Shown here: piece after piece, positions 6,299 to 39,978 of the stretch
Numbering within the stretch: the first letter of the stretch is position 1
How the letters are laid out: every line of letters starts with the position of its first letter
Virus record (IMG/VR): IMGVR_UViG_3300023218_000202
Span: 3,833-67,832 of that record
From: a virus
Lineage: Duplodnaviria; Caudoviricetes
Strand: one strand, 5' to 3'
Length of the DNA stretch: 64,000 bases
Made by a program: the position numbers and the translations under genes
The notes under the pieces: generated by a model
Databases searched by the model: none
Told to the model about the DNA's origin: nothing
What the model saw: the letters and a program-made list of their open reading frames with translations, nothing else

Positions 6299-6957
6299 GT
6301 TTAAGCGAATTCGACGATGAAGTATTAGAGCGATTGGCGCATGTTGAACTTCCCTTTGTGGTGGCTGGGGGATGGCCTTTAAGCCAGGTCGTCCCCCAGG
6401 CCCGCACCAAGGACCTGGACGTGTTCGTCCAGAGAGACCCGTCGGGGTTCTTGTCCGAGCTGGGCGTGCCTGCCGACGAGATCGAGCGGCTCAGCCCAAC
6501 CGTGGCCCGGGCCGGTCGCGTCGAGGCGATCCGCTTCCAGCCGGTGGCGGGGGAGCTACGGGGCAGCGTGATCAGCTCGTTCGACTTCGGGATACTGCAG
6601 GTGGGGTATCTGCCGGAGCTGGACAGCTGGATCGTGACCGACCTGTGGCGCGAGCACGCGGCCAGCGGCTTGATCGAGTTCGACCCCGAGGAGAACCCGT
6701 TTCAGCGGCCTGTGCGTGCGCAGAACCGGGTGAAGAAGATGATGCAGAAGCTGGGCTGGGAGGTCGGCCCCGAGGTGTTGCGTTTCATGCGCTATCGCGC
6801 CGATGCGGGCTTCGAGCTGACGCCCCCCGAGGGCGGCGAGGTGTTCCAGCGTCGGTTGCGGCGTTGGTCGTATGCCTCGCTTCAGGAACTCCAGAGCTGG
6901 GTCCAGCCTACGGAAGGTGGCGCGCGGCACCCGTTGGAGCTAATTCAGGGAGTGTGA
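6295..6957 (+). CDS. Nucleotidyltransferase (Pol-beta superfamily, CCA/poly(A) polymerase head-like)
   Basis: VVAGGW...TKDLDVFV (GG..DxD) and SFDFGILQVGY motifs. Confidence 0.75.
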   Translation: MSLSEFDDEVLERLAHVELPFVVAGGWPLSQVVPQARTKDLDVFVQRDPSGFLSELGVPADEIERLSPTVARAGRVEAIRFQPVAGELRGSVISSFDFGILQVGYLPELDSWIVTDLWREHAASGLIEFDPEENPFQRPVRAQNRVKKMMQKLGWEVGPEVLRFMRYRADAGFELTPPEGGEVFQRRLRRWSYASLQELQSWVQPTEGGARHPLELIQGV

Positions 6958-7778
6958 TCGGCTTGGCAAAACGAATCAGCGGGAGGTTGTTGGCCAGGGA
7001 ATCGACCCGGCGTGCCTGGAAGCCGGGGGAGTACCGTGTGCGGGAGCAAACGCAGCAGTTGGATCCCGGCGCAAGCAGTGGCGGACCGTTGCCGCGAGAT
7101 CAGTTCTCGGAAGGGACGATCGACTTCGGCACCTTCTCGGTCGAACCCGTGGAGGGAATCGGGTACGCTGTTAACGTCTGGGCGGATACGGTCTTTTCCA
7201 GATGCGGTCTGAGCTACGACGGCGTCAACTGGAGGGGACCTGAAGGCGGTCTGCGGGATAAGCAGTGGCAAACGGTCTGGGACTCTTCGGGGGCCATCCT
7301 CCAACATCTGCGTAAGCACGCCTTGCAGTTGCTAGAGCAAGGGGTTCCTCGCGGCCGCGAGCTGTGGAACCGTCTGGACCAACGCGCCATCGAGCTTGCA
7401 AACAAGTTCCCGTGCGCCGCGCTGGGTCCGACGCCAAAGGACGGAAGTCAGGCCGGCCCACACGACCCGCGAGGTTCACAAGACCGTCGGGAAGAGGAAC
7501 CTGGCTGTCAGGAAGATCTCTCCCGGGCCAAGACCTTCGTGAGCAATGCTATGAATCTGGCCGCTGGTATTCCTTCGGGGTCTGACTTTGAAGACCATCC
7601 TGACTGCAAGGAGTACGTGAACCTCGCGGCCCGGTTCAATGACATCGCGCTCAAATACTGCTCTGACGCTCACGGCATTGCCGATGCGCCTTGTTCCGGC
7701 TGCCAGGAGTTCGAGAGCCTGATAGAGCGGATGTGGTCTCAGCCCGGCCTCTGCGATGTCATCGCGCTGCTTGACTAA
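6954..7778 (+). CDS. Hypothetical protein with shared N-terminal leader motif
   Basis: GTGA coupling. Leader KRISGRLLARESTRRAWKPG matches 37058-37252. Cys-containing helical C-terminus. Confidence 0.7.
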   Translation: MIGLAKRISGRLLARESTRRAWKPGEYRVREQTQQLDPGASSGGPLPRDQFSEGTIDFGTFSVEPVEGIGYAVNVWADTVFSRCGLSYDGVNWRGPEGGLRDKQWQTVWDSSGAILQHLRKHALQLLEQGVPRGRELWNRLDQRAIELANKFPCAALGPTPKDGSQAGPHDPRGSQDRREEEPGCQEDLSRAKTFVSNAMNLAAGIPSGSDFEDHPDCKEYVNLAARFNDIALKYCSDAHGIADAPCSGCQEFESLIERMWSQPGLCDVIALLD

Positions 7779-7850
7779 ATTCCATCCCAAGTCCCAATCC
7801 CAAGTTGCCCCGGTCGGTGCCGCCCATCGCCAACCGGGGCAACTCCCCGA

Positions 7851-8237
7851 CTACATCGGCCGCGGCTGGCGGTAGAACCAGAGCCGGTGATGCGGCACGC
7901 GCTCCCAGAGGCCGCGGTCGTGGTCGTATCGCTCGACCTCGAGGCCGCCCTCCCGGTCGTCGGGGTCGTACCAGGCGATGCGGAGCCAGGGGCGCACCTG
8001 CCTCTCGAGCTGCATGTGGACGTGCGCGTGCACGCCTAGCAGGTTGGCCGGGTGGTTGAAGCGCCGTTCGCCGCCGTGCCCGCGGCCGGCCACGTGGTGT
8101 GTGTGACTGATCTGCCGGCCGGAGATCCAACACGTTCCGCGTTGCCGCTTCCACACGGCGCGCTTGAGATCTTCGGTGAAGTCTTGCCGGGGCGCTTCGG
8201 GGCGCGTGAGCCAGCGGCGCAGGGCATTGGGATCCAT
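7851..8237 (-). CDS. HNH endonuclease-like protein
   Basis: CWISG...HTHHV..RG.GG...NHPANLLGVHAHVH motif. Confidence 0.7.
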   Translation of the reverse strand: MDPNALRRWLTRPEAPRQDFTEDLKRAVWKRQRGTCWISGRQISHTHHVAGRGHGGERRFNHPANLLGVHAHVHMQLERQVRPWLRIAWYDPDDREGGLEVERYDHDRGLWERVPHHRLWFYRQPRPM

Positions 8238-8302
8238 GCGACCCAGGCTACGCCGGCGCGACGGCGTCCTTTGGCCCATCGCCCCCCCCTAAAATCGTTC
8301 CA

Positions 8303-8560
8303 ATGGACCTGGACGCGCACATCGAGCGGTTTCTCGATGAGGGCGCGCGCCAAAGGAGGTATCGCGCAAGGCTCTTCCTTGCCATGCACATCGAGCAGCG
8401 CCAGGGCGCAGAACTGGACCGTGCAGAGGTCTCGATCGGCCCGCTGATGACAATCAAAGATTGCTTCTGTAACGCCCCGCTCGGGGCGGGGGCCTGCGAG
8501 CTCTGCCACGGCCTGCCACTCGAAGATGGAGAAGGGGAGCGTGATGACGAGGAGTCGTAA
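8303..8560 (+). CDS. Small Cys-containing hypothetical protein
   Basis: CFC...CELCH; overlaps the start of the next gene. Confidence 0.55.
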   Translation: MDLDAHIERFLDEGARQRRYRARLFLAMHIEQRQGAELDRAEVSIGPLMTIKDCFCNAPLGAGACELCHGLPLEDGEGERDDEES

Positions 8561-10085
8561 ACGACAACGCAAGCGGCGCCGCCGGCAGGACAACCACGAT
8601 AGCTGGCTGCACCACGGCCGTAAGAAGTTCGCCTGCCGCTGGGCTGTGCTCTACCACGACCCGTCCACCGATAAGATCGAATGGGCCGGCTACGACGACG
8701 ACAGGCACACCCCACGCGAGGCGCAGAAGGAGTACAGCCGCTGGCGTCGCGAGGTCGGCAAGTCGACCGGCCAGGATCAGCCTTCACCCGAGGACGTGTG
8801 GCTGTTCTTCTACCCCGACGACCCGGTTCCCACCCTGGCCAACGCCGAGTCGAGACAGAACGACTACCATCAATTCAAGCAGGACCTCGAAAACGACCCC
8901 TCATTCAACCAGACGAGCGAGAAGGCGTCCTTCCGCGTGGACAAGGAAGGCGTGGCCCACTTCGAGCTCAAGACCCGGACCATTCGCGAGCTGGACCAGC
9001 TGCTGGAGGAGCTCAACGTCGACACCTCAGAATGGCAAATCGAGGATTGGACCGGCGGCAAGCACGACCAGGGCATGAAGCTCAAGCGCGTGCTGGCCGA
9101 CGGGACCAGCTACCAGGTCCCGGTCGTCACCCAGTTGTTCCACATCCGGGCCCGCTTCCGGCCGCGGGTCAAAGAGCGCGCCTTGGAGTTGCTGTTCAAG
9201 GAGATGAAGACCTGGGTCAAGGGCTACCGCCGGCGGCACCCGCGCCGCAGCCGGCTCAAGCGGGAGCTGGCCCACCCCGACGGGTTGATGCTCAAGATCG
9301 ACAACCCGGATCTGCACTTCGGACGGCAGGCCGAGCCCGAGATCACGGGCTACGAGTACAACCTCGAGCGCGCCCGCCAGCTGGAGATCGATTCGGTGGC
9401 CTACCACCTCGAGATGGCCACCGGCCAGTTCCCGATCAAGCACGTGCTCATGCCCGTGGGCAACGACCGCTTCAACGTCGACAACCTCTGGAAGACGACC
9501 AGCCACGGGACCTCTCAGGAGGAGGTCACGGCGCGCAAGCTCACCTGGCAATGGGCCAAGCAGAGCATCATCGACGCCGTCGAGCTCTGCCTCGATCGAG
9601 ACGTTCTGGTCACGCTCGTGCCCGTGCTCGGGAACCACGAAGAGGACACGATGGAGAAGTTCGCCGACCTGCTGGGTGTCTTCTGGGACGACGACCCGCG
9701 CGTGACGGTCTACCCGGCCTCGACGCGCCAGTACGTGCGCTACGGCGCGAACCTGATCGGCCTCACCCACGGCTACTACGAGAAGTGGGACGAGTTGCCG
9801 GGGATCATGATGGCCGAGCAGCGCGGGCACCTGTCGGGATGCTCGTGGCTGGAGTTCAACACGGCGCACGAGCACCGCTGGCTCGTGAAGGACGGCTCCA
9901 GCGTGCTCATCTGGACCAGTCCATCGATGGCCGCGCCCAGCTACTGGGAGCACAAGAAGGGCTACACGGCCAGCCAGCGCGCCTCGGAGAGCGTGGTCTA
10001 TCGTCCCGACGGCGGCCGGGTGGCGCACTACCCGTTCGTGATCGAAGAGAAAGCCCATCCGGCCAAGGCCGCGATCGAGGTCTGA
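8544..10085 (+). CDS. Calcineurin-like metallophosphoesterase with N-terminal extension
   Basis: DLHFG, GND, GNHE, THG and AHEH metal-binding motifs in canonical order. Confidence 0.8.
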   Translation: MTRSRKRQRKRRRRQDNHDSWLHHGRKKFACRWAVLYHDPSTDKIEWAGYDDDRHTPREAQKEYSRWRREVGKSTGQDQPSPEDVWLFFYPDDPVPTLANAESRQNDYHQFKQDLENDPSFNQTSEKASFRVDKEGVAHFELKTRTIRELDQLLEELNVDTSEWQIEDWTGGKHDQGMKLKRVLADGTSYQVPVVTQLFHIRARFRPRVKERALELLFKEMKTWVKGYRRRHPRRSRLKRELAHPDGLMLKIDNPDLHFGRQAEPEITGYEYNLERARQLEIDSVAYHLEMATGQFPIKHVLMPVGNDRFNVDNLWKTTSHGTSQEEVTARKLTWQWAKQSIIDAVELCLDRDVLVTLVPVLGNHEEDTMEKFADLLGVFWDDDPRVTVYPASTRQYVRYGANLIGLTHGYYEKWDELPGIMMAEQRGHLSGCSWLEFNTAHEHRWLVKDGSSVLIWTSPSMAAPSYWEHKKGYTASQRASESVVYRPDGGRVAHYPFVIEEKAHPAKAAIEV

Positions 10086-10095
10086 AAGGAGACCC

Positions 10096-17048: not shown

Positions 17049-17525
17049 ATGGATGTGAAAGACGACGCGATCCGCCAGCACGGCGCGGCCAAGCAACTGG
17101 CCGAGGAGCACTTCATCGGCGAGGGCAAGCCCTACTACTTCCTGCGGGACTGCAACATCCTGTGGGTGGAGCAGGACGTGCGCGTGCCCAAGGGCTACAG
17201 CGTGGGCAAGGTCAACGGCCTCTGGCGCTGGCAGACGGGCTACGACATCGTGATCCGTATCCGCACAGATTGGTGGGAGTCCTTCGAGACCCACGAGGAG
17301 CGGCTGGCCTACCTTGACCACATCCTGGCGCACATCGAGCTGACCGACGAGGACAGCTACGTCATCAAGGAGCCGGACCTGCAGATGTTCTCCGCCGTGG
17401 CCGCGCGCCACCAGGAGGCGTACCTGGAGCGGATGCAGGAGCACACCGAGGGCATCGCGCAGATGCAGTTCGACTTCGAGCCCGAGGTTCGCAGCGGCGA
17501 GCTGGCCGCGACGAACAACGTGTGA
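17049..17525 (+). CDS. Phage metallopeptidase-like domain protein, degenerate HExxH
   Basis: DIVIRI...W...RLAYLDHILAHI...PDLQMFSAVAARH; HILAH replaces HExxH. Confidence 0.65.
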   Translation: MDVKDDAIRQHGAAKQLAEEHFIGEGKPYYFLRDCNILWVEQDVRVPKGYSVGKVNGLWRWQTGYDIVIRIRTDWWESFETHEERLAYLDHILAHIELTDEDSYVIKEPDLQMFSAVAARHQEAYLERMQEHTEGIAQMQFDFEPEVRSGELAATNNV

Positions 17526-18967: not shown

Positions 18968-20515
18968 ATGTCCGACTCTGACCTGGAACAGGCGCTCCAA
19001 ACCGGCGACGTGCTGATCGCCAAGGACCTGGTCAAGCACCGCGACGAGCTCATGCGCTGCTACCGAGATCCGTGGTATTTCGCCACGCGCTACTGCTGGA
19101 CCAAGAAGAAGGAGGCCGAAAAGCCGGGCGAGGAGACCGAAGCCGGCCCCGACCTGGTGGCGATCTACCCTGAATGGGACTACCTCAAGCCCGTGATGGA
19201 AGAGATCTACCACGCGCAAGGGTCTCACCTGTGGGAGAAGAGCCGCCAGATGCTGCTCACCTGGACCTTCTGCATCGTGGAGCTGCACAAGCTCATGTTC
19301 CTCGAGGGGTACGAGGCGCTCAACGGCTCGCGCAAGGAACAGCTCGTCGACGACGGCGGGGATGCATCCACCACCTACAGCACCCACGGCCGCATCCGCT
19401 TCATTTGGAAACGCCTCCCCGAGTGGATGCGCTCGCCGCTGCACTTTGCCTACCTCAAGATCATCAACCAGGAACCGGGCATGGACGGGCTTATCATCGG
19501 CGAATCCGCCAACGCTGACATCGGGCGCTCGGGTTCGTTCGTGGACATCCTGCTGGACGAGGCCGCGGCCATTCCCAACGGCGAGAAGGCCCACACCGCG
19601 CTTTCAGGTTGCACCTTCATCGCGCGCCACTACGTCTCGACCCACAAGGTCGAGGAGAACGTGTTCGGCCGGCTGGCCGAGGACGAGAACTCGGGTTTCA
19701 AGGTCCACGGGATTCACTGGAGTCTTCGTCCGGACCGGGACATGCGCTGGTACAAGGAGAAGTCCAAGGGGATGTTGCCCCACCAGGTTGCGGCCGAGCT
19801 GGACATGGTACGGCGTGCCGGGAGCGAGCAGAGCTTCATCTACGGGGACTGCTACGACCGCGAGTCCCACATCGTGGGTGACGATGACCTGCCGGCCGAG
19901 GACGAGATTTTGCACATCGTGGGAGGCCAGGACTGGGGCTTCTCGATCCAGGGCGCCTTCCTGAAGGGTCTCGTCGACTCGAGCGGCAACCTCTGGGTGG
20001 TCGGGGAAACCGCGGCAGCGCGTATGCAGGTCGAGCAACTCGACGAGGGCGGCAATCCGACCTCCGACTGTTGGTGCGGTGTGGCGCAATCTTCTGGCTC
20101 GGAACTGGTGGTGGCCGGGCACGAGAACCCGGAAGACATCGCCAAGTTCCAGCAGCACGGGGTCAACACCCGCTCCCGCAAGTGGTCGGTTGAGCACGGG
20201 ATCCGGGAGGTAACCAAGCTGCTGCGTGGCGCCGAGGGCAAGCGCCTCTACATCCACGAGTCCTGCGTGACGTTGTCCAAGGACCTGCCCAACTACCGCT
20301 GGCGCACGGACGCGCGCGGCGAGGTAATCCCCGGCCAGCCGCTCAAGAAGCACGACCACACGCCCGACGCGCTACGCCACCTGGTCGAGGCGGCGTCGAT
20401 GTTCGAGGACGCCTGGGTCGCGGACCTGGGCGAGGCGCCCAAGGCCAACCGGCGGCGTCAGTCCCGCCGGCCGCTTGGGAAGCGCAAACGGAAACGGTAT
20501 AGCCCTCATCGGTAG
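18968..20515 (+). CDS. terL: Terminase large subunit
   Basis: EKSRQ ATPase motif, ILLDEAA Walker B, GQDWG RNase H motif, C-terminal HDHTPDALRH. Confidence 0.9.
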   Translation: MSDSDLEQALQTGDVLIAKDLVKHRDELMRCYRDPWYFATRYCWTKKKEAEKPGEETEAGPDLVAIYPEWDYLKPVMEEIYHAQGSHLWEKSRQMLLTWTFCIVELHKLMFLEGYEALNGSRKEQLVDDGGDASTTYSTHGRIRFIWKRLPEWMRSPLHFAYLKIINQEPGMDGLIIGESANADIGRSGSFVDILLDEAAAIPNGEKAHTALSGCTFIARHYVSTHKVEENVFGRLAEDENSGFKVHGIHWSLRPDRDMRWYKEKSKGMLPHQVAAELDMVRRAGSEQSFIYGDCYDRESHIVGDDDLPAEDEILHIVGGQDWGFSIQGAFLKGLVDSSGNLWVVGETAAARMQVEQLDEGGNPTSDCWCGVAQSSGSELVVAGHENPEDIAKFQQHGVNTRSRKWSVEHGIREVTKLLRGAEGKRLYIHESCVTLSKDLPNYRWRTDARGEVIPGQPLKKHDHTPDALRHLVEAASMFEDAWVADLGEAPKANRRRQSRRPLGKRKRKRYSPHR

Positions 20516-20534
20516 CGCCTATCATGGCGGTACC

Positions 20535-22550: not shown

Positions 22551-22605
22551 AGGTCATCGCGGGGGCTTACACTTGGGGCGGACCTGGGATACGAAGGGTT
22601 TTAAC

Positions 22606-25600: not shown

Positions 25601-26784
25601 AGCAGGCGCGCCAGCGCGGCAACGAGCTGGACAAGCGGGAGCTGGAAGCCTTCATCAAGGAGAAGGCAGAAGCGCGGGCTGAGGAGCTGCTGGAGCCGCT
25701 GGTCCAACAGGAGGGCGAGGCCTACCGTGAGGAGCTGCTGAACCAATTCCTGGCTGACAAGCCGCCGGAGGAGGGCGAGGGCGCCGCGCCGGAGATGGCC
25801 GTGGCCGGCCTGCGCGCGGCCGAGGACGGCGAGTGCTGGCAGCCCGGGCCGGACGAGCTCGAGACGCTGATTGACAACGCCAAGGGGCGGCTTCGCGAGC
25901 GCGGCGAGCAGCTCAAGGCCGCGATCGGAGAGGACCTACGCGCCCAGGGCGATCTGTCGTTCCAGCAGAACGGCGAGCCGATCCGCTCGGCGGTCCTGGA
26001 AGCCGAGGAAGGCGTCATCCGCGCGCACGAGGGCGCCTTCCGAGAGATGGTCGTCAACGCGCTCGGTGACGCTTGGCTGTGTCTCAACGGGGCCGGTCCG
26101 CCGTGTGACGATGCGACCCTGCGCGAGCGCGGGATCTGCAGCAAGACCGACGTGCTGCGCATCATCCAGCGGCAGCTCGATGCCCAGGTGCAGAATATGG
26201 AAACGGCCATGCGGGAGACGATGGCCGACTTCCGGATCTTCCGCTTCGTGAACTGGGTCAACGCGATCATGCAGTTCGTCATCGGGCGCGGCTTCATGAT
26301 GGTGTTCCGGATCGCCGATAAGGCGGAAGCGATCGGTAAATCCGTCTGGAAGCTGGTCGTGGGGGAAACTGCCGCGGCCTCGATTGCGCTGCGGCTCAGG
26401 AAGCTCAACCCCGACCGCTACAACAAGATCACCACGGATAAGGAAATCCTGGACGAAGCGATCCGCGTGGCCAAGCAGAAGCTGCTTGCTTCCAAGGATC
26501 GAATCAGGCAAGAGATGCGTGACAGCATCCGCTCGCGCTATGAAGAGGCTCGCCGGCGCGGGGAGGACCCCGATGTGGCGCGCATCGAGGCGGACGTGCG
26601 CGCGGAGGCGAACAAGAAGTACGAGGCCGAGCTCTACTCGATCATCGAGCGTGAGGTGCGGGACCGGCTGTTGCGCCGCTTCGAGGATGCGGCTCGTGAC
26701 GAGATGCAGAGAGCCGCAGACCAAGAGATCCGCCAGCAACAGCTCGACGAGGCGAACCCGGGCAGCTCGGCCCCGACGGAGTGA
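22606..26784 (+). CDS. Large acidic helical head-associated protein with internal repeats
   Basis: 1392 aa between portal and MuF; three copies of an IGP...RDED...YL..F domain. Confidence 0.75.
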   Translation: MTPLVNTEGRAREDLSDRSFATYIRLLPFDTNVKGLRNDHRILHAWWRELLKRQLTNFSGWTAFQIKEAHDQLVERIKELDPDFNHNSPMELPEFLGGRAREQYNIGPSRYEGLLSDWRQRWEEFADERGLSSKELEEGWEEIAAEIARLRDEDSIDGEPIGTLDELVNHLQAFVEQVAEGFDTEPDDGGEAPDDPDASAPSGDGEGPSSSTPEERQAEAPTQALDPGDASGDEAEEEPEPGEETKTNRGEKDDRKTGPYEISKEDVGRVLEEGRARAEREAVFSGLTPRGREIFNRLWQVNVNVLERDWVGRIFFNRAQALQEMRDFLDELIGSMISILEIERQKAQESRSREDIFVGPKTRNDLWLEWRPIAIKRGNQAGLTNEAVERLLVALGRELDRIRDEDTIQGVAIPSHEELNTYLDGWLDDQIAQEKRSPQSVGQRRPSRPLEENAAIKTQLAIFEVMVGRILEGRADEITTAGLDTDELVGKHREILEAKLIQLSEEHGIEVLQRRAREALNEALALFRSELVRHLAPERAEESDPKIHWRHLLAFRQNPRFFFRARADVFIGPKTAESLLATWAPVVRERAEAEGLGVDAVGMLIDQLRQEIERIEAQDTINGGPIESHDALNAYLDQFVETILASFTFPQPEENQAKMLIQNPGGRPPVDTLARQDVMFRVRQDFFDRASRIVDSLVVPQGERAGPGIIPATDEALSDAERMKQRYWSRVEAKVEDLPTEDLEHFERQVRTVARQQLEKFRDDLIHVYRAREKQGREAEGKVNEEACYIPSPDEKQTLQRIGSREFDKEKQFWNDAINDDFIFEAQLGRPMTPVVRVMLRGLLHQELDDLGAMRFDPVLVVQESRRSNDRCPGDWFAFKKSWLDILDKTISDLGRAMEGHFRRLVEFDEEVDFLAALFVAALTFELVIFRPLGRIVPPIARAIWRAIKVSNRTLFLAAGITKVVFEEEVRARVEDKYGAQVHSKVRQEMERLAEEKREQARQRGNELDKRELEAFIKEKAEARAEELLEPLVQQEGEAYREELLNQFLADKPPEEGEGAAPEMAVAGLRAAEDGECWQPGPDELETLIDNAKGRLRERGEQLKAAIGEDLRAQGDLSFQQNGEPIRSAVLEAEEGVIRAHEGAFREMVVNALGDAWLCLNGAGPPCDDATLRERGICSKTDVLRIIQRQLDAQVQNMETAMRETMADFRIFRFVNWVNAIMQFVIGRGFMMVFRIADKAEAIGKSVWKLVVGETAAASIALRLRKLNPDRYNKITTDKEILDEAIRVAKQKLLASKDRIRQEMRDSIRSRYEEARRRGEDPDVARIEADVRAEANKKYEAELYSIIEREVRDRLLRRFEDAARDEMQRAADQEIRQQQLDEANPGSSAPTE

Positions 26785-28454
26785 TCCCCATGAACCGCAT
26801 GATCGCGCGAGAACAGTGGCTGCTGGGCTCGGACTACGACGCCAAGAACCGAACCAAGATCCGGGATCTAATCCGGCGTCGGCTGGACGAGGAGCTGGGC
26901 CGGATCATCCAGATGCTCGGCGAGATGAACCGCGAGGTCTACATCTCGACGGCACAGCAGCAGATTGCTTCGATCTTCGAGAAGCTCGACGACGAGCTGA
27001 GCGAATTGCCCAGCGACCACTTCGACAGCAAGGCCCAGGCCGAGCAGTGGGGACAAGACAAGGTGCGCATCGAAACGAACCAGCTCATGAAGCAGTTCCG
27101 CGAGGGCACCATCGGAGTGTTCGAGGGGCCGGTGGTGGCCACGGAGGTCGTGCTGAACACGATCCTGGTTGAGCTGACATCCGATTGGGAGATCGCATCG
27201 TTGGATCACAGCGTCGATTTCAAGCCGCAGATCCAACACTGGAAGCGGATCATGCGCGCGCGCATCCTGCTACTGGAGGGACGCGAGTTTCCCAGCTTCG
27301 AAGCGCTCAAACAGGAGGCCCGGGATATCTTCGATGAGGCGCTGGAGGGGCTTGCCGAAGGGATCGGGGGAATCGAAGGCGAGGCCGAGGTCACCCGAGG
27401 GGACTTCGAGCGCCTGGAGGCGGGATTCGAGGCAAACAGAAGCGACTGTGTCGTCCTGGTCAGGCTGCTCCCCCAGGTGCGAGACATCCTGCGCCGGCGT
27501 ATTCCCGACCCACAACTCTCCGCCGACTTCAACGATCTTTTCGACCGCATCGAGGACTGGCACGATCTCAACGACTGCTCGACCGTCGTGGGGACCATCG
27601 CCGCCCCGCGCCTGGTCGAAATCGTCCAGGACGCGAAGGTCGAGTTCGACAAGCGCGTGAGCGACCGCATCGGCGTGCCGGTGGGGGAGGCTGACTACCA
27701 CGCGAGCTTCGCCTCGCAGCTGCAGAAAATCCGGGGGCGGATCGGCCGCGCGCTCGAGCCCCTGATCGACCGGGCGGACAAGAGTGGGGAGATTGCGGTG
27801 TTTGTGGACGAACAACTGGGCCCCCTGGTCGAGGAAGCCGAGGCCGCCTACGGCGAGGTCATCAGCGAGGCCGAGCGGGTGGCCACTCAGATCGACGAGG
27901 CCGTCGCTCGGGCCGTGTGCCTGACGGGGAAGATCCGCGGTCAGGTTAACTTCTGGAGTCACTCCCCCTTCCCCGAGGTGTTCCGGCAGTTCGAGCAGAT
28001 CGCGGCTCAGGCCGGTGCGCTGCCCGACTGCGAACCGGGCCAGAGCCCGTTTCCCGACGAGGGGCTGCCCGGCGGGGGCGGCCCGGGGCCACAGGCGACG
28101 GAGAGCGCGCTGCGGGCGCGTGAGCAGGGGCCCGAGCGCGACGACTTCCAGCAGCCGCCGCCGGAGGAAACGCCCGGCCCCAAGGGGGGCTGGTTCCGGT
28201 GGGTGACGAAGAACGACGACCGGGTCCGGCGGGGGCACCGCGAGCTGCACAACAAGGTCTTCCGCTGGGTCGACGGCGCGCCGGTCGAGTTCACGGGCTA
28301 CGGCCACTTCCCCAAGGAGCCCAACTTCTGCCGCTGCCACGCCGAGGACCTGGGCGAGGACTACCAGCCTACCGGTAGCGAGCTCGGGCCGGGCGTCCAG
28401 CCGCCACCGCGCCCACAGAACCAGCGCGGGAGCCGCGGAGGCGGCCTTTCCTGA
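26781..28454 (+). CDS. Head morphogenesis protein (Mu gpF/SPP1 gp7 family) with long helical N-terminus
   Basis: C-terminal WVTKNDDRVRRGHRELHNKVF...HFPKEPNFCRC motif. Confidence 0.85.
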   Translation: MIPMNRMIAREQWLLGSDYDAKNRTKIRDLIRRRLDEELGRIIQMLGEMNREVYISTAQQQIASIFEKLDDELSELPSDHFDSKAQAEQWGQDKVRIETNQLMKQFREGTIGVFEGPVVATEVVLNTILVELTSDWEIASLDHSVDFKPQIQHWKRIMRARILLLEGREFPSFEALKQEARDIFDEALEGLAEGIGGIEGEAEVTRGDFERLEAGFEANRSDCVVLVRLLPQVRDILRRRIPDPQLSADFNDLFDRIEDWHDLNDCSTVVGTIAAPRLVEIVQDAKVEFDKRVSDRIGVPVGEADYHASFASQLQKIRGRIGRALEPLIDRADKSGEIAVFVDEQLGPLVEEAEAAYGEVISEAERVATQIDEAVARAVCLTGKIRGQVNFWSHSPFPEVFRQFEQIAAQAGALPDCEPGQSPFPDEGLPGGGGPGPQATESALRAREQGPERDDFQQPPPEETPGPKGGWFRWVTKNDDRVRRGHRELHNKVFRWVDGAPVEFTGYGHFPKEPNFCRCHAEDLGEDYQPTGSELGPGVQPPPRPQNQRGSRGGGLS

Positions 28455-31619: not shown

Positions 31620-31802
31620 ATCTGGTCCCACGCCGCCTTCGGGGTGGGCCGGCACCCATCCGGCCCGCCCTGTCTACTCCCAACGCTCCACAAAAATGCA
31701 GTTCCCAACGGGGATTTTGGGTTCAACGTCACGGCATAAAATGGCCTTAACTGGCTAGAAGTCTGAACCGATCAGGTGAAAGTTCAACCTGGGGGGTTAC
31801 AA

Positions 31803-34421
31803 ATGAGCAAGACTGCAAGGCGAACGATCGCAAGGGAACAGGACGAAGAGCGCCAACTCCAGGCCGGTGACGGCTCGGAAACGGACCAGCCTTTGGAAGA
31901 GGACCTGCTCATCGGGCCGAAGCGCAAGACGAAACTGCAGAACTTCGCCCGGGACATCTTCGAGGCCGCCCGCATCGAGCTGGTGGACCTGGCCAAGCAG
32001 GCTGGCTTCGAGGACGTCGACACCCGTCTGGAAGGCATCTGGCAGGAGGTCTTGGGCGAGCTCGAACGCATGAAGGAGGAGGACGCCAAGCCCGACGGCT
32101 CCCCCTTCGACAGCCTCGACGACGCGCGCGCCCACCTGGAGGCGTTCATTCAGGAGCGCGTGGACGGTTTGCGCGAGGAAATCAAAGCGGCCCAGCAGGA
32201 GAAGGACAAGCAGCAGGGGCCTGCCAATCCTGAGGAAGAGTCCTCCTTCGAGGTGACCGAGGAGATCGTCGAGCAGTTCGTCTCGGCCAGCCGGGCCGCG
32301 TTCGAGACCGTGGCCGACGAGGAGGGCAAGAGCGTTCCGAAGGAGCAGAAGCAGGAATTCATCGAGAAGGCGTTCAACGAGTTTGCCGAGGCGCTGCGTG
32401 ATTTCGTCGGGGCGGAGTTCACCGACAAGTCCGTTTGGGATGACCTGAGCACGGCGCGGCTTAAGGTGGCGCTGGAGAAGCTGCGTGCGCTGTTCTCCTC
32501 TTTGGGGGGCGGTGGGGATGGCGAGGAAAAGACGTTCATCGCCGGCGAATCGATGCTGGGGGTGGATTCGCCCACGTCGGTGGCGCTGGAGAGCGTGCAG
32601 TGCGTGGACGGGAACTGCGAGCTCGGTCCCGACAAGCGCAAGCGCTTCCTGGTGAAGGCGATTGAGCCGGGCATGAGTCTGAACAACTTCCACTACCCGG
32701 CCGAGCTCCTGCGCGCCCGGGCCAACCTGCTCGACGGCGTGCCTGTGCAAGCCTACGGCTTTGGGAAGTACGAGGCGATGTTTACGCACCTGCCCGATGG
32801 CCACGAGGAGCTGCAGCCTAGCGGCTTCCGGCTCAACCGGGTCGGGGTGCTGAAGGAGCCGTTCTGGGTCGGACCGGACAGCCGGGCCCACGAGGACTTG
32901 TACCACGAGTACGGCGAGGGGGCCTACGCGTATCTCGAGGTCGACCGCACCTCGGAAAGCTGGGCGGTGGACTACCTCAACGACGGCGGTGGCCTGAGCA
33001 TCTTCGCCGACATCGACGGGGAGTATCGTTTCGACCCGAAGAGCGATTCGGTCTACGTCTCGGTGGAGGACATCAGCCGTTTCCGCAGCGTCGACTTCGC
33101 CAGCCAGCCGGCCGCGGGCGGTAAGATCCTGCACGCGGTTGAGAGCATCCAGCAGGGGCGGAAGCATGAGATGCAGCGTTTCAAGGGCGAGGTGCTGGCG
33201 CTCGGCGCCGGCGAGATCCTGGATGCGGTCGGCGCGCCCGGCACCGCCAGGGAGCAGTCGGCCCAGCTCGATGCCGGTCACGGCGGAGACCCCGACGAGG
33301 GCGCGATCCTGGCGATCGATTCGTCGATCATCTCATCGCTCCAGGGGTTGATCCGGCGGGAGTTCCAGCTTTCGCCTTCGGACCCCGAGGTCTCGACCGA
33401 GCGCACCAAGCGCATAGCCGAATGCGCCTGGGCGCGGCTGTTCCTGCAGCACGACGACGAGCAGCGCGCCAACGACGAGCTACGCGCGCTAGTGCACGGC
33501 GACTCGATGGAGGGGCCGTTGCTGGAATGCGCAGACGAGGAGATGGCGAAGTTCCGACATGGGGAAACGATTCAGCAGTTGAACCTGGACGAGGTTGTCT
33601 CGATCCGGGGCTGTGGCGAATGTGGACGAGAACTTATCGCAAAGGAGAGCGATATGAGTAAGCAGAAGGCACTCGAAGCGGTGTCGGCCATGCCGCGGAG
33701 TCAGCTCCTGGGGCTGCGCCCCGATCTCAAGCCGTACCTCGATGCGTTGGATCGGGCCCGCGAGGCCGAAGGAGACGGTGAGGGCGGCAGCGGCAATGGC
33801 AACGGCGGCGGCGACTCGAATGCCGGCTCGTCCGGTGACAGCAACGGCGCCAACGGCGACCAGACCAACAGCAACGGCGGCGGCAACGGCGAGGGCGGCG
33901 GCAGCCGCACGCTGGAGACCCCGGCTGGCGAGCTGGACGAGAAGACCTTGCGCAAGTCGTTCGCGCAGCTGCTGGGATTCGAGGAGAACGACCCGCTCTT
34001 GTCCACGATCGTCAACAACCTGTTCGAAATCGTGGAAAACGAGGGCGAGGAAGCGGCCGACCCGCAGGCGCGCGAGGCCGTGCTCAACCTGGCCAACCGG
34101 CTGCGCGACCTGGAGAGCGACAAGGCTCGCACCGAGCGCATGCAGGTACTCGAGGACGCGCTGGCCGAGGCTCATCTGCCCGAGCCGCTGGAGGCGTACG
34201 TCCGCAAGCGCTACGCCAACAGGCGCTTCGCCACAGAGGACCTGCAGCACGAGGTCCGGGAGATGCAGGCCGTGGCCAACGGCATGCTGGCCGGTGCCAA
34301 CGGCGCGCTGATCGACCCGGCGCTGGGCGAGCTGGTCGCCCGCGAGGACGGCGGCGAGGGCAACCAGCTCCCGCCCGAGTTCGACGAGCTGCGCCGGGAG
34401 TTCCAGGCGTTCGCTTCCTAA
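31803..34421 (+). CDS. Prohead protease / scaffold polyprotein
   Basis: FTH, GLSIFA and SVDFASQPAAGG motifs (HK97/herpes-fold protease); acidic Gly/Asn linker and coiled-coil tail; upstream of capsid genes. Confidence 0.85.
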   Translation: MSKTARRTIAREQDEERQLQAGDGSETDQPLEEDLLIGPKRKTKLQNFARDIFEAARIELVDLAKQAGFEDVDTRLEGIWQEVLGELERMKEEDAKPDGSPFDSLDDARAHLEAFIQERVDGLREEIKAAQQEKDKQQGPANPEEESSFEVTEEIVEQFVSASRAAFETVADEEGKSVPKEQKQEFIEKAFNEFAEALRDFVGAEFTDKSVWDDLSTARLKVALEKLRALFSSLGGGGDGEEKTFIAGESMLGVDSPTSVALESVQCVDGNCELGPDKRKRFLVKAIEPGMSLNNFHYPAELLRARANLLDGVPVQAYGFGKYEAMFTHLPDGHEELQPSGFRLNRVGVLKEPFWVGPDSRAHEDLYHEYGEGAYAYLEVDRTSESWAVDYLNDGGGLSIFADIDGEYRFDPKSDSVYVSVEDISRFRSVDFASQPAAGGKILHAVESIQQGRKHEMQRFKGEVLALGAGEILDAVGAPGTAREQSAQLDAGHGGDPDEGAILAIDSSIISSLQGLIRREFQLSPSDPEVSTERTKRIAECAWARLFLQHDDEQRANDELRALVHGDSMEGPLLECADEEMAKFRHGETIQQLNLDEVVSIRGCGECGRELIAKESDMSKQKALEAVSAMPRSQLLGLRPDLKPYLDALDRAREAEGDGEGGSGNGNGGGDSNAGSSGDSNGANGDQTNSNGGGNGEGGGSRTLETPAGELDEKTLRKSFAQLLGFEENDPLLSTIVNNLFEIVENEGEEAADPQAREAVLNLANRLRDLESDKARTERMQVLEDALAEAHLPEPLEAYVRKRYANRRFATEDLQHEVREMQAVANGMLAGANGALIDPALGELVAREDGGEGNQLPPEFDELRREFQAFAS
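33654..34421 (+). CDS. Nested in-frame scaffold protein (internal start)
   Basis: Strong SD AAAGGAG 6-7 nt before the in-frame ATG 33654. Confidence 0.6.
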   Translation: MSKQKALEAVSAMPRSQLLGLRPDLKPYLDALDRAREAEGDGEGGSGNGNGGGDSNAGSSGDSNGANGDQTNSNGGGNGEGGGSRTLETPAGELDEKTLRKSFAQLLGFEENDPLLSTIVNNLFEIVENEGEEAADPQAREAVLNLANRLRDLESDKARTERMQVLEDALAEAHLPEPLEAYVRKRYANRRFATEDLQHEVREMQAVANGMLAGANGALIDPALGELVAREDGGEGNQLPPEFDELRREFQAFAS

Positions 34422-34874: not shown

Positions 34875-35921
34875 ATGAGCACGAATGCACTGACGCGGGA
34901 GCGGGCGGGGCGTAAGCCCCGGTACGCGCGTGAGGACCTGCGCACCGCCGCCAGGAAGCTGAAGGCGCTCAACGAGCTGGGCGCCTCCAAGATGAACCTG
35001 GGCACGGTGCGCGAGTCGATCGGGCCGGACCTGTTCGACCACGTCATCACCACCGAGATCAACGCGCGCGTCCTTAGGCCGTTCGAGGACCCGAAGTTCG
35101 AGGAGTGGAAGAAGATCGTCACCGAGTCGGACGACCCCGATCTGCAGACACAGATCGGCGTGCGCCTGGGCGGCCTGGGCGACGAGCTCAAGCCCTTCCC
35201 CGGCCGGTTCGGAGAGACCGACATCCCGCCCGAGGAGAAGGTCGACTACTCGGTGAGCATCTACGGCGAAATCTTCGGCCTCGACTTCGAGACCGAGACC
35301 AACGATCGCCTCAAGGCGCTCATGAGCTTCGGCGACGAGCTGGGCCAGAAGTACTCGCGCGGGTTCCTCAAGGAGATCTTCGTCACGATGCTCCAGGACA
35401 ACCCGACGATCTACGACAGCAACAGCCTGTTTGACTCGACCAACCACGACAACGACCTGGACAACGGCGGCGCCGGCAAGGAGCTCAACTACGCCAACCT
35501 GCAGGCGGCGTGGGAGAAGCTCGCCGGCCAGACCAAGCTCGACGGGACACCGGTCCCGACCGAGGGGTTCTACATCGTCTGCGGCACGCCCAACATCATG
35601 GCAGCCGAAGACTATGCGGAGAACCCCAACAACCCGGACAACGCCAACGAGAGCCGCAACACGCTCAAGAAGCGCATCCGCGGCGTCATCTGGCACCGCT
35701 ACCTCGGCAACGACTGGTACATCGTCGCCCCGCGCGAGGAAGTGCCTGGCCTGCACGTGGGCTTCCTGAAGCCCTGGGGCCGCAAGCCGCTGGTCGACAC
35801 GCAGAGCGACCAGAGCGATGAGAGGTTCCGCACCATGAAGAAGAACTGGCGCGTGCGCTACGCCTTCGGTCTGGTGTGGCAGGAATACCGCGGCGTCGTG
35901 CGCGGCAGCCAGAACGTCTAA
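34875..35921 (+). CDS. Major capsid protein (Mu gpT-like)
   Basis: YGEIFGLDFETETNDRLKAL...LQDNPTIYDSNSLF...HDN motifs; strongly biased codons. Confidence 0.88.
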   Translation: MSTNALTRERAGRKPRYAREDLRTAARKLKALNELGASKMNLGTVRESIGPDLFDHVITTEINARVLRPFEDPKFEEWKKIVTESDDPDLQTQIGVRLGGLGDELKPFPGRFGETDIPPEEKVDYSVSIYGEIFGLDFETETNDRLKALMSFGDELGQKYSRGFLKEIFVTMLQDNPTIYDSNSLFDSTNHDNDLDNGGAGKELNYANLQAAWEKLAGQTKLDGTPVPTEGFYIVCGTPNIMAAEDYAENPNNPDNANESRNTLKKRIRGVIWHRYLGNDWYIVAPREEVPGLHVGFLKPWGRKPLVDTQSDQSDERFRTMKKNWRVRYAFGLVWQEYRGVVRGSQNV

Positions 35922-36395: not shown

Positions 36396-36411
36396 CGGAA
36401 GGAGGGCGCAC

Positions 36412-36762: not shown

Positions 36763-36765
36763 CCC

Positions 36766-37047
36766 ATGAACAGAGGCACGACAAGCAGCGCTCGGCTTAC
36801 CTCGAGCGGCGTGGTCAAGGCCGCTGGCGATCGTGTGGACTTGCAAGCGCTGGTGGTCAACCCCAGCGGCAGCGCGGGCACGGTCACGCTATACGAAGGC
36901 GTAGACACCGATGGCGACGTGCGCTTCTACTTAGACACGCCGGCGGGCGGCGTGCCGATCGTGGTGCCCTTCGACGGCGGCCTGACCTTCCGCGCTGGGC
37001 TGCACGTCGAGCTGTCCAACTGCGAGGTCAGCCTGAGCTACTGGTAA
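36766..37047 (+). CDS. Small beta-rich structural protein
   Basis: GTVTLYEG...GLTFRAGLHV pattern; in the structural operon. Confidence 0.65.
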   Translation: MNRGTTSSARLTSSGVVKAAGDRVDLQALVVNPSGSAGTVTLYEGVDTDGDVRFYLDTPAGGVPIVVPFDGGLTFRAGLHVELSNCEVSLSYW

Positions 37048-37057
37048 GGAGGAAACT

Positions 37058-37252
37058 GTGAAGAAGATCAGCGGTTCGATGGTGGTACGTGAATCGGCGA
37101 GTCGCTCCTGGAGCCCCGGCAAGACCCGGCCGGCGCGCAAGGCGCGTGAGGGTTGTGTCCCGTGTCGGAAGAAGCGGGCACTTGAAGCGGTCACCCGGAT
37201 GAGTGACGACGAGCTGCTGAAGATCCGCCCCGACTTGAAGGGCTACCTGTAA
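37058..37252 (+). CDS. Small protein with leader motif and scaffold-like motif
   Basis: SD AAGGAGG. KKISGSMVVRESASRSWSPG leader; CVPC..ALEAV...RPDLKGYL matches the scaffold. Confidence 0.75.
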   Translation: MKKISGSMVVRESASRSWSPGKTRPARKAREGCVPCRKKRALEAVTRMSDDELLKIRPDLKGYL

Positions 37253-37254
37253 CC

Positions 37255-38097
37255 ATGAAATCCTCGTTTACGCCCCGAGTTTCCTACCGCGCTCGCGCCG
37301 ACATCCAGATTGGCCCGGCGCGCCGCGAGGCCCTGGAGATCCAGGCGCGCGAGATCTTCGAGCGCCTGGTGGACGAGCGCCGAGGAGACCTGGACAGCCC
37401 GGCCGCGGACGAGGCCTGGGACGTGGTCCTGACCGAGCTGAATCGGTTGCGGGATGAAGACAGCCGCCCTGGCGGGGCCGGCTTCGACACGTTCGACCAG
37501 CTGGACGCCTACCTGGAGGGCTTCATCCGCAGCACGGTCAACGAGCACTTCGGCACGCCCGCACCCGAACCGGTGAATCCTGCCGAACGCGGGCGCAGCG
37601 CGCCGCGGGCGCGGCTCGACCCCGGCGCTGCTGGCGGGATCGTGATCGACAGGCAGGCGCTGCAGGCGTTCGCTCGTCAGTCATTCGCCCGAGCCAAGTC
37701 CGATCGTGGCCTGGAAGGCGCTGACATCGACTTCGGCCCCGTGCGTAGGGAGGTCGAGCGGGTCGTCGTCGAGCGCATCGGATCCAACGGCCAGCGGGTG
37801 ACCAGCCAGGCCGCGGCCGAAGGCGTGATCCGCTTGTTCATCAATCAATACCTCGACGGGGATGTGGAGCTCCCCATCGACGAGGGGGCACTGCAGCGGT
37901 TCGCCGAGCTGCACTTCCGCAGGACGGCGCGCAACTTCGGCCTCAGTCCGGATGGACTGGACTTCGAGCCGGTGCAGGCTGAGGTCGTCCGCGTGCTGGA
38001 CGAGGGGACGGACATGTTCGGCCGGCCCGTCACGACCCAGCGCGAGGCCGAAACTGCGCTGCAGACGTTCATCAACGACTACCTGAGCCAGTTCTGA
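37255..38097 (+). CDS. Helical-repeat head-associated protein
   Basis: One IGP/RDED domain plus two tandem ~70-aa repeats (ID..AL..FA...F......GL...DF.PV..EV...FIN.YL). Confidence 0.75.
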   Translation: MKSSFTPRVSYRARADIQIGPARREALEIQAREIFERLVDERRGDLDSPAADEAWDVVLTELNRLRDEDSRPGGAGFDTFDQLDAYLEGFIRSTVNEHFGTPAPEPVNPAERGRSAPRARLDPGAAGGIVIDRQALQAFARQSFARAKSDRGLEGADIDFGPVRREVERVVVERIGSNGQRVTSQAAAEGVIRLFINQYLDGDVELPIDEGALQRFAELHFRRTARNFGLSPDGLDFEPVQAEVVRVLDEGTDMFGRPVTTQREAETALQTFINDYLSQF

Positions 38098-38108
38098 AGG
38101 AGGCGCCC

Positions 38109-38282
38109 ATGCCCGAAGAGGACACCCAGTTCGTGGAGATGAAGATCGAGGAGGACGCCGCCCGCGAGGCGCACCTGTTCCTGCACGAGTGGCTGCACGG
38201 CAAGACGATCGCGGCCGATCGCGAGCGGATTCACACGGTCGTGAAGCGCTTCGAGGAGCAGTTCGGGACGATCGAAGGGTAA
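38109..38282 (+). CDS. Small His-motif protein
   Basis: SD GAAGGAGG; EAHLFLHEW...IHTVVKR. Confidence 0.6.
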   Translation: MPEEDTQFVEMKIEEDAAREAHLFLHEWLHGKTIAADRERIHTVVKRFEEQFGTIEG

Positions 38283-38299
38283 AGCCGAGGTGATGAGCG

Positions 38300-38797
38300 A
38301 TGGCCGCATCCGTCCGCTGGAACGAATACAACGGCGCCGGTGCAACCGAAACTACCGGAATCACCAACGTCAACGCCGGCAGCGTCGACAGCCCCAACCT
38401 CGACCCGGCCGCCAATCCGGTCAAGGTCGGGGAACACGCTTACGACAAGTGGCACAAGATCGACTTCTTCGGCGGGACGTTCAACAAGGTCAGCAATTTC
38501 AAGTTCTGGCGCTCGGACAGCGGCGGCGGGGACGGCGCTTCGCTCCCGACGGGCATCACGGTCAAGGGCGAGGTCGGCACGCCGGGCGGAGGCGATCTCA
38601 CCTTCAGCCAGCCAGCGACCTCGGCGATCGCAGCTTCGGATGTGCCCAACACCGAAGCCGGCGCGCTCAGCGTGGGTCCCTCGGAGCTGACGGCCACAGG
38701 CAAGAGCCACTACATCCACACGCAGGTGCAGTCCACCGGCTCGGCCCCGACCGGCGAGACGCAGTTCTGGTACACGTTCCGCTACGACGAGGAGTAG
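38300..38797 (+). CDS. Virion structural protein
   Basis: Gly/Thr/Ser-rich beta protein (W.EYNGAG...NVNAGSVD.PNL...KW...F..V.NFKFW). Confidence 0.7.
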   Translation: MAASVRWNEYNGAGATETTGITNVNAGSVDSPNLDPAANPVKVGEHAYDKWHKIDFFGGTFNKVSNFKFWRSDSGGGDGASLPTGITVKGEVGTPGGGDLTFSQPATSAIAASDVPNTEAGALSVGPSELTATGKSHYIHTQVQSTGSAPTGETQFWYTFRYDEE

Positions 38798-38798
38798 T

Positions 38799-39356
38799 GT
38801 GGTTTCGCGGGCGTTGAAATCGGCTCGGGAGCGCGCATGGTATCCGGGTATGCTTTGCCCGGCTCGTGCCCGTGCCCAAGCGCTCTCCGACAAGGAGATA
38901 GAGCGCATCTTCGGTAAGCGCACCTCGATCAGCCGTAAGGGCAGGTCTGGGCCGCTACGTTTCTGGCAAGAGAGGGGCCTACTTGCGGGCAATGTGCTCG
39001 ACCTGGGGTGCGGCCGTGACCAGCATGATTTTGCCTGCTACGACCCGTTCCACAATCCAGAGGTTCAGCATCTGGCTAAGAAGTGGAGCACGATTATGCT
39101 CAACTACGTCCTCAATGTCCAACCCAGCGATCACCTCATCACCGAGGTCCTCGCGCTCGCGCGCCACATGCTCAAGGACAACGGTCAGGTCTTGATCGCG
39201 ATTCGCAACGACCTCGGCCAGGATCAGAGCACCAGCCGCGGCGTGCAGCAGGTAAAGTCCGTGGCCGAATGGCGCTCGTTTGTCGAGCCTATTTTCTCGG
39301 AGGTCAAAACACTCAAGGAGAAAGGGGACTTCATTGCGCTCGTCGCTCGTCCTTGA
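38799..39356 (+). CDS. Class I SAM-dependent methyltransferase
   Basis: VLDLGCG motif I, YDP and NYVLNV motifs. Confidence 0.8.
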   Translation: MVSRALKSARERAWYPGMLCPARARAQALSDKEIERIFGKRTSISRKGRSGPLRFWQERGLLAGNVLDLGCGRDQHDFACYDPFHNPEVQHLAKKWSTIMLNYVLNVQPSDHLITEVLALARHMLKDNGQVLIAIRNDLGQDQSTSRGVQQVKSVAEWRSFVEPIFSEVKTLKEKGDFIALVARP

Positions 39357-39978
39357 GGCCTCCCGCCAACGCGCGTGGTATCCGGGGATGGTTGTGCGTG
39401 AGGAGTCTAGCTCGATCGAAGAACTGAAGCGCGAGGCCAGGGGCCTAGGCGTCCCGTCGCGCAGTAGGGCGCTCGACGCTGAGAACCCTGTAGGTAAGCA
39501 GATGGGCAAGAAGGTCTGGATCCACAGGCAATACGACGATGTGCTGCCACGGCGTGGATACCAAGCTGCGATCGATAGGTTGCCGGATGGCTTCAGTTTT
39601 AATGTCGTCCGGTACGACATGGGAACGGGGTCGTTCGCGTTCTTTGACTCGCCCGACTTCGATGGCGTACCCGAACCGGAGGTGGGGGAGTCGGTGTTGG
39701 TCTCGGGTAGCGAGGTGAAGCGTAGAAGCCCACAGGCGGACCCGCTGATCTGGCATCACAAATGGCTGTTCGTCAGGGATGACTACCAAGGTTTCGATGT
39801 GGCTGAGAGCATCCGGCGTTCAATCCGCTGGAAGAAGGTCGTAGGAAACGACCCGAGCCTATCTGCTCGAATCGGCCGTAAGAGCGTCTGGGGAAGAGAG
39901 GTACTCCCCAAGTTGAGAGGTGAGGGGTCAACGACCCGCCCCCTGAACGGGGCAGGTCTCCTTGGCCGAACTCTATGA
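39334..39978 (+). CDS. Domain resembling the non-MTase part of phosphorothioation-associated methyltransferases
   Basis: TTG start after AAGGAG/GGGG. GK..GKKVWIH...SPDFD..PEP.VGES...PLIWHHKWLFV motif (recalled, not searched). Last codons come from the mini-IS. Confidence 0.65.
   Translation: MRSSLVLEASRQRAWYPGMVVREESSSIEELKREARGLGVPSRSRALDAENPVGKQMGKKVWIHRQYDDVLPRRGYQAAIDRLPDGFSFNVVRYDMGTGSFAFFDSPDFDGVPEPEVGESVLVSGSEVKRRSPQADPLIWHHKWLFVRDDYQGFDVAESIRRSIRWKKVVGNDPSLSARIGRKSVWGREVLPKLRGEGSTTRPLNGAGLLGRTL
39927..39964 (-). mobile_element. 38-bp non-autonomous IS200/IS605 mini-element (LE/RE hybrid)
   Basis: Reverse complement caaggagacctgccccgttcagggggcgggtcgttgac. First 26 nt equal the left end at 61219; the 3' part equals the right end at 62516; same TCGGC flank. 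Confidence 0.85.

Follow-up and report, generated by a model that had tools for sequence, protein, structure and literature searches.

Four genes with a shared N-terminal leader

IMG/VR record IMGVR_UViG_3300023218_000202 is a single contig of 67,832 bp (63.8% G+C) from an uncultured tailed phage of metagenomic origin, and the window analysed here is a stretch of 64,000 nucleotides that covers its bases 3833-67832. Exactly four open reading frames (ORFs) of this phage, named s1, s2, s3 and s4, begin with a related peptide of approximately 18-21 residues that ends in R-[AS]-W-x-P-G. The first-pass annotation of this DNA had noticed a leader common to four proteins, and we recovered it at those positions and in frame with the ORFs, with the start of s1 at TTG 6963. 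The positions of the leaders, their genes and the other features are listed in Table 1. The residues R, W, P and G of the terminal motif are invariant and a short hydrophobic patch lies ahead of it. An ungapped alignment anchored on the Trp residue fits all four copies, in which the Trp lies 13-18 residues from the start codon. The leader is a short and probably helical stretch, mostly basic and strongly so in s1-s3, that extends up to R-[AS]-W-x-P-G, and Shine-Dalgarno sequences (SDs) lie ahead of all four starts.

The observation of a shared leader is real and statistically sound. A comparison with shuffled sequence had been proposed as a check, and in it the motif stood above background: [SA]xxR[AS]W.PG occurred four times compared to 0.1 in dinucleotide shuffles, and the shorter R.W.PG was found 10 times in six frames compared to 2.1 +/- 1.5 in 60 dinucleotide shuffles. 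When a hidden Markov model was built from the four copies, these scored 37-41 bits and the next-best window genome-wide scored 8 bits. Since no non-member window scored above 8 bits, there is no fifth copy in the genome. Leave-one-out models always placed the omitted copy first among the windows not used for training, with E values from 0.06 down to 2e-5. With s4 as the query, the top three of 135,564 ungapped windows were s3, s2 and s1. Furthermore, an unbiased all-against-all comparison of 872 ORF N-termini ranked s3/s4 first with a score of 60, the remaining comparisons reaching 47 or less.

No Pfam or NCBIfam match was found for the four 40-residue N-termini (E up to 1 for Pfam and up to 10 for NCBIfam). 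Readings as a twin-arginine translocation (Tat) signal, a prepilin leader or a lipobox were rejected by eye because no hydrophobic segment follows the leader. A reading as an IS200/IS605 end was also rejected, the leader being by eye unlike the putative transposon scar at 39927-39964.

Table 1. Position and properties of the leaders, their genes and other features of the window
Feature	Position	Strand	Details
s1 gene	6963..7778	+	Orphan, 271 aa; 246 aa if read from GTG 7038
Leader of s1, M-AKRISGRLLARESTRRAWKPG	6963..7028	+	TTG 6963 through the Gly codon; identity to s2 11/21 aa, 39/63 nt
Alternative internal start of s1, SD GGGGGAG and GTG 7038	7026..7040	+	SD 6 nt upstream, made by the P-G-E codons of the leader
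Putative phage metallopeptidase, stand-alone	17049..17525	+	PF18894, E 5.2e-7; just upstream of the terminase region
Large terminase	18968-20515		
Portal	20475-22550		Lambda-type match
1403-aa protein	22573-26784		
MuF-domain protein	26781-28454		
881-aa head protein	31776..34421	+	Helical repeats, weak protease-like domain, scaffold part; source of the s2 motif (residues 629-655, ~33660-33740)
Major capsid protein (MCP)	34875..35921	+	Mu gpT-like / PF25209; s2-s4 sit 1-4 kb downstream, in the head block
Insert block 1 (genes 36766, s2, 37255, 38109)	36766..38282	+	Absent from L011 (tblastn synteny)
s2 gene	37058..37252	+	64 aa: leader, basic linker, CxxC, scaffold-like motif
Leader of s2, M-KKISGSMVVRESASRSWSPG	37058..37120	+	GTG 37058; perfect SD TAAGGAGG 5 nt before the start
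C-terminal scaffold-like motif of s2, KKRALEAV...IRPDLKGYL	37169..37249	+	BLASTP 16/27 (59%) against residues 629-655 of the 881-aa protein, E 2e-7
Insert block 2 (s3 and s4)	38799..39978	+	Absent from L011; L011 homologues of 38300-38797 and 39975-40448 abut with a 4-nt overlap
s3 gene	38799..39356	+	185 aa; S-adenosylmethionine methyltransferase, N-terminal half of a TIGR04096-like protein; Pfam Methyltransf_23, E 1.9e-4
Leader of s3, M-VSRALKSARERAWYPG, core ..KSARERAWYPGM	38799..38849	+	GTG 38799; SD GAGGAG 4 nt before; ATG 38850 directly after
s4 gene	39334..39978	+	214 aa; widespread domain of unknown fold, phrog_16075
Leader of s4, M-RSSLVLEASRQRAWYPG, core ..LEASRQRAWYPGM	39334..39387	+	TTG 39334; ATG 39388 directly after; first 7 codons overlap the end of s3
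Complete tnpB / TnpB	61283-62515	+	Cas12f1-like TNB and OrfB_IS605 domains

Translation of the leader

Whether the leader acts as protein or as nucleic acid was a key question, because start codons also follow the motif, directly in s3 (ATG 38850) and s4 (ATG 39388) and three codons on in s1 (GTG 7038). The conserved element could accordingly be a DNA or RNA signal, such as a regulatory site, a translational operator or the end of a mobile element, that lies just upstream of true starts at these three codons and whose frame is open by accident. The choice of public gene callers agrees with such an element, as they took GTG 7038 for s1 and gave just an 86-aa piece of s3 instead of the full-length gene. 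In addition, TGGTATCCGGG is identical between s3 and s4, and the copies have a weak 5-bp hairpin in common.

However, the copies differ from each other with a three-base periodicity, and amino acids were kept only in the ORF frame. The 24 nucleotide differences between s1 and s2 are distributed 9/4/11 over codon positions 1, 2 and 3, and those between s3 and s4 are distributed 8/4/12. When the same changes were placed at random, the observed BLOSUM score was reached in 1e-4 of the trials for s1/s2 and in none of 20,000 trials for s3/s4; the copies were first noticed via their translation, which biases these tests somewhat. Both pairs gave no signal and a random-like result in the other two frames. 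In the 12-codon core of s3/s4 a manual count placed 0 of 11 differences at the second codon position, and an 11-codon core window had 9 differences, distributed 3/0/6. Two-base synonymous changes were also seen between copies (AGG/CGT for Arg and TTG/CTT for Leu).

Conservation runs from just past the SD-preceded start codon to the PG residues, and the DNA upstream is not conserved. No conserved or stable RNA structure was detected at the leaders by folding (z-scores from +1.4 to -1.1) or covariation (zero), no Rfam search having been run. The DNA pattern of the motif was barely enriched, with 7 matches compared to 3.2 expected, and 7 matches were reached in 4 of 100 shuffles. A search for separate promoter or terminator cassettes at the tagged genes gave nothing above shuffles. 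Neither ATG 38850 nor ATG 39388 is preceded by an SD, though the phage uses strong SDs. In s2 there is no alternative in-frame start before residue 47; its leader must therefore be translated to make the scaffold-like half of the protein, and this C-terminal half, an apparent scaffold paralogue, is itself under coding constraint. The periodic, frame-specific divergence together with the lack of RNA structure indicates that the leader is very probably a translated peptide, and an action as DNA or RNA ahead of downstream starts appears highly improbable.

Proteins behind the leader

The first-pass annotation had described the proteins behind the leader as unrelated to each other and one of them as a methyltransferase, and both descriptions agree with our results, the methyltransferase being s3. 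Positions 5-88 of TIGR04096 match residues 40-114 of s3 with 21 bits, and positions 320-442, near the other end of the model, match s4 with 14 bits; both matches are weak. TIGR04096 describes a DNA phosphorothioation-associated putative methyltransferase that is a single protein of approximately 478 aa. An assignment of s3 and s4 together to this family was rejected, as its cut-off of 150 bits was not reached; they are distant split relatives. The first ~35 residues of s3 are absent from its homologues, and the leader is missing from the homologues P0018 and P0019. For s4, a public 214-aa call from TTG 39334 exists that includes the leader (P0020).

The s4 body has 845 homologues at E up to 1e-3, and homology begins at the Met directly after PG. 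In both s3 and s4 the leader directly precedes the ancestral Met. No leader was found in 149 homologues of s4, 2 homologues of s3 and 9 IMG/VR loci (~160 in total). The leader is coding, constrained at the level of amino acids and confined to the N-terminus, and it has been added to bodies whose homologues elsewhere lack it.

The AlphaFold2 (AF2) model of s4 gave a predicted local distance difference test (pLDDT) score of 97-98 for the body and a predicted template modelling score (pTM) of 0.81, and the leader was modelled at low confidence as a helix (residues 3-15) that stands outside the fold. The body (39406-39918, residues ~25-195) carries a near-invariant H-H-K-W ... Y-x-G-F ... R-S motif. 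No match of the s4 fold to solved structures was obtained with Foldseek (E at least 0.096) or VIA-align (best Z 3.2), and the body may be an uncharacterised enzyme or binding domain. Homologues of s3 and s4 are often fused together or to ParB-like segments, or they lie inside larger proteins (468-4044 aa). The proteins of 1785-4044 aa that embed the s4 domain also carry ART-PolyVal and methyltransferase domains. They belong to the polyvalent proteins, for which packaging and injection have been predicted (Iyer, Burroughs, Anand, de Souza, Aravind 2017; PMC5512222).

Gene callers agree on GTG 37058 as the start of s2, leader included. The scaffold-like motif at the C-terminus of s2 differs from its copy in the 881-aa protein at third codon positions, and the motif is also kept, together with the preceding CxxC, in the scaffold of the nearest relative, prophage L011. 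From this alignment the C-terminus of s2 is identified as a paralogue of the N-terminal motif of the scaffold. The s2 protein could serve as an adaptor, or it could be the one of the tagged proteins that associates with the scaffold. For s1, whose start is ambiguous between TTG 6963 and GTG 7038, no homologue or domain was found in Pfam, PHROG, NCBIfam, protein databases or Atlas, and a tagless isoform made from GTG 7038 is possible.

Accessory status of the tagged genes

The same phage was found a second time, on a 43.7-kb Logan contig that encodes identical proteins. No close relatives were found among GenBank phages, at the DNA or protein level, or in IMG/VR. Single-sequence scans of three contig collections for relatives of the capsid protein were empty; an alignment-based scan gave L010-L018, of which only L011 was syntenic. 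The capsid protein of L011 is 52% identical, and by tblastn synteny L011 keeps the gene order 34434-MCP-35940-36412-38300-39975-41098-43922. The G+C content at third codon positions is near 0.7 in s1 (0.70), s3 and s4, compared to 0.8-0.9 for core genes. With the two insert blocks of Table 1, all four tagged genes look accessory.

A historical by-product without common function has to be considered at this point. The leader would then be a short 5' gene segment, made up of the start and the first codons, that was copied during the insertion of foreign genes into operons through illegitimate or short-homology recombination and that was kept as a working start site. Several features agree with such an origin: each of the four genes has an atypical composition or was inserted, the leader directly adjoins the ancestral ATG in s3 and s4, the 3' end of the s1 leader doubles as the SD of the internal start, and the tnpB element shows mobile-DNA activity in the genome. 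However, the copies are old (~60% nucleotide identity), yet amino acids and conservative replacements were kept and second codon positions are almost untouched, which is unexpected for a functionless linker. The SDs and the upstream DNA, which a start-site cassette would need, are not conserved. We consider a by-product of this kind unlikely.

Capsid loading and other possible roles of the leader

The first-pass annotation had interpreted the leader as a capsid-cargo tag of the T4 type, removed by cleavage after RE or LE. Part of this reading is retained: the leader is a translated N-terminal peptide on unrelated accessory proteins, among them a methyltransferase, and three of the four genes lie in the head block. 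The details taken from T4 did not hold, since the head genes are Mu-like (MuF and a Mu-gpT-like capsid) and nothing resembles the T4 capsid-targeting sequence (CTS). Cleavage after RE or LE is weak, because the position of the Glu varies between copies and s4 has either Gln or no counterpart.

The evidence for capsid loading is circumstantial. The s2-s4 genes are located in the head-gene block, 1-4 kb downstream of the capsid gene, and the domain types of s3 and s4 occur in polyvalent proteins that are predicted to be injected. In addition, s2 joins the leader to a scaffold motif, and its neighbour 37255 has the helical repeats of two large head proteins. The leader may thus be a capsid-loading tag for the four proteins, a reading that fits best among those considered and that we put forward tentatively. 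With a portable tag of this kind, proteins would dock inside the assembling procapsid, on the scaffold, the portal or MuF. The docked proteins would be packaged and then leave with the DNA, in analogy to the signals of the T4 internal proteins and of P1 DarB. As a protein made of tag and scaffold motif, s2 could be an adaptor to the scaffold. A head protease might remove the tag; loading would not require this, and the four copies as a set do not support it.

In its full form the proposal is that this phage, with its Mu-like head, has a lineage-specific and so far undescribed system for capsid loading, in which a peptide of ~18 residues would address solo counter-defence enzymes (among them a DNA methyltransferase and a domain of unknown fold) and s2 would bridge to the scaffold. 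So complete a system is doubtful. The capsid-loading tag itself is at present a well-founded hypothesis, plausible and partly supported, that derives from one singleton genome and four copies.

Several results weigh against capsid loading. Profiles built from one pair of copies missed the other pair (not significant), so the set is best described as two tight pairs, s1/s2 and s3/s4; the link between them is modest and rests on s4 and the R-[AS]-W-x-P-G core. The tag has no sequence similarity to the T4 CTS (MKTYQEFIAE-like) or to other known capsid-targeting sequences. The strong internal start GTG 7038 of s1, which public gene callers use, would skip the tag, and s1 itself lies outside the head block, in a region of recombination and replication genes 12 kb upstream of the gene for the terminase. 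The Glu proposed for cleavage is not positionally conserved, s3 having ARE-R at another register and s4 RQ-R. A prohead protease was seen only as a weak match of the 881-aa protein to phrog_15531 (E 0.0023). The AF2 model of the capsid protein, with a mean pLDDT of 55.7, was too poor to place a propeptide boundary or the VRE-S site described below. Finally, the tag was not found in other genomes when IMG/VR was searched with the s1, s2 and s4 proteins, the leader alignment and a degenerate RAWYPGM DNA pattern, or in searches of GenBank phages and of protein databases with s1, s3 and s4. As no relative carries the tag, the exchange of cargo behind the leader, for which the first-pass annotation proposed a search of relatives, cannot be shown, and modularity is not confirmed.

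The only matches to the RAWYPGM pattern were V-R-A-W-Y-P-G-M in terminase-like ORFs of two IMG/VR contigs (L019 3780-3800; L020 12899-12919). Another W-Y-P-G after basic residues was seen in an R2K ATP-grasp protein (L001 4240-5034) beside an s4 homologue on a 317-kb phage contig. All were judged coincidental because they are internal to folded domains. Tandem paralogues with near-identical N-termini were observed at L011 5303-5887 and 5944-6522 and at L014 1964-2600; these are ordinary tandem duplications and not portable tags.

With respect to cleavage, s1 and s2 have (A/V)-R-E-S, which resembles a site in the N-arm region of the capsid protein and one in the 881-aa protein, and [KR]E[SA] is a common tripeptide. 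The capsid family keeps (V/F)-R-E-(S/D)-I-G-P-D near residue 46 in 9 of 10 homologues (35007-35033, MCP residues ~45-53; VRE-S in this phage). The junction of the protease and scaffold parts of the 881-aa protein has A-K-E-S-D (33642-33656, residues 623-627), and L011 has Q-K-E-S-A (8329-9444), just before the ALEAV...RPDL motif. The VRE-S site of the capsid protein and the AKE-S site of the junction are possible maturation cleavage sites after Glu, as far as these alignments suggest. As to the protease identity of the 881-aa protein, there was no PDB sequence match for the central domain and no significant Pfam match (best E 0.046), and the neighbours in L011 were uninformative.

A real shared tag might also have another fate. 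An enzyme encoded by the phage, for example the putative metallopeptidase at 17049-17525, could recognise or cleave it or be inhibited by it as a propeptide. It could also be a host-protease degradation or regulatory signal, or a basic peptide that binds nucleic acid or a partner and so gathers the four proteins at one target in the infected cell. The evidence for translation and conservation is the same for a tag with such a fate, and the strongly basic leaders of s1-s3 and the position of s1 outside the head block agree with it. The phage also encodes a stand-alone PhageMetallopep domain, and this metallopeptidase could be an alternative candidate for an enzyme that acts on the tag or on head proteins. 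However, the metallopeptidase is not linked by position to the tagged genes, and the genes scanned included no obvious enzyme for modifying the tag, such as a radical-SAM, ATP-grasp or kinase protein. Such a fate would not explain why the tag is fused to a scaffold motif in s2 or why three copies lie in the head block. Such other fates are, taken together, rather doubtful.

Other genes of the window

The opposite strand holds replication, methylase and helicase genes. Directly after s1 lies a gene on the minus strand (7851-8279) with a weak Pfam match to DUF968 (E 7e-4), HNH-like by eye. It breaks the rightward operon and may mark a mobile insertion beside s1.

A helical module of ~100-200 residues occurs in several copies in the 1403-aa protein. 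By BLASTP (E down to 2.5e-13) it was also seen in the 280-aa protein encoded at 37255-38097 and in the 881-aa protein, at residues 42-187. This module may be the real head-interior anchoring domain of the phage.

Comparison with known systems

The loading of foreign proteins into phage heads builds on N-terminal capsid-targeting tags, which to our knowledge have been proven for few model phages only (T4, P1). In T4 the internal proteins IPI, IPII, IPIII and Alt, diverse proteins with accessory or counter-defence roles, have a shared N-terminal CTS that directs them into the scaffolding core, and they are injected with the DNA (PMC3012670). The leader resembles the CTS in that here too a short N-terminal peptide is common to unrelated proteins of one phage. 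In contrast to T4, the head genes are Mu-like, no gp21-type protease was found, the one protease signal being the E 0.0023 match to phrog_15531, and there is no conserved L/I-x-E site. Furthermore, only four copies are present, in two divergent pairs.

For DarB of P1, an antirestriction protein of the methyltransferase-helicase type, fewer than 30 N-terminal residues suffice to load a heterologous protein into the capsid (PMC9024508). The s3 protein is likewise a methyltransferase; it is encoded in the head block, and its N-terminal extension is missing from its homologues. The N-termini of the Dar proteins have no consensus in common (PMC9024508), in contrast to those of the four proteins described here. 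In addition, s3 is a small TIGR04096-like protein and not a methylase-helicase of the DarB type.

A likeness also exists to polyvalent and MuF-fused effectors, since the domain types of s3 and s4 occur with ART-PolyVal, ParB-like and methyltransferase domains and the phage has a MuF-type head protein. However, s3 (185 aa) and s4 (214 aa) are solo genes with their own leaders and are not part of a MuF-anchored or zincin-processed polyprotein. Start-associated sequences of cluster K mycobacteriophages and PeSL cassettes of T4-type phages lie 5' of several, often accessory, genes; they precede the start codon and function at the DNA or RNA level. In contrast, the motif described here follows starts that have an SD ahead of them, and its divergence is that of coding sequence.

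If capsid loading is correct, the principle of N-terminal targeting would extend to a new, unrelated tag and to a phage whose head is Mu-like, and it would become easier to predict the accessory genes that uncultured phages inject with their DNA. It would also mean that the domains of polyvalent proteins can be unbundled into separately tagged cargo, and it would tie solo methyltransferase and unknown-domain genes to the counter-defence repertoire of polyvalent proteins. By analogy, the tag appears closest in spirit to that of P1 DarB; it would work like a CTS but is not a member of the T4 system.

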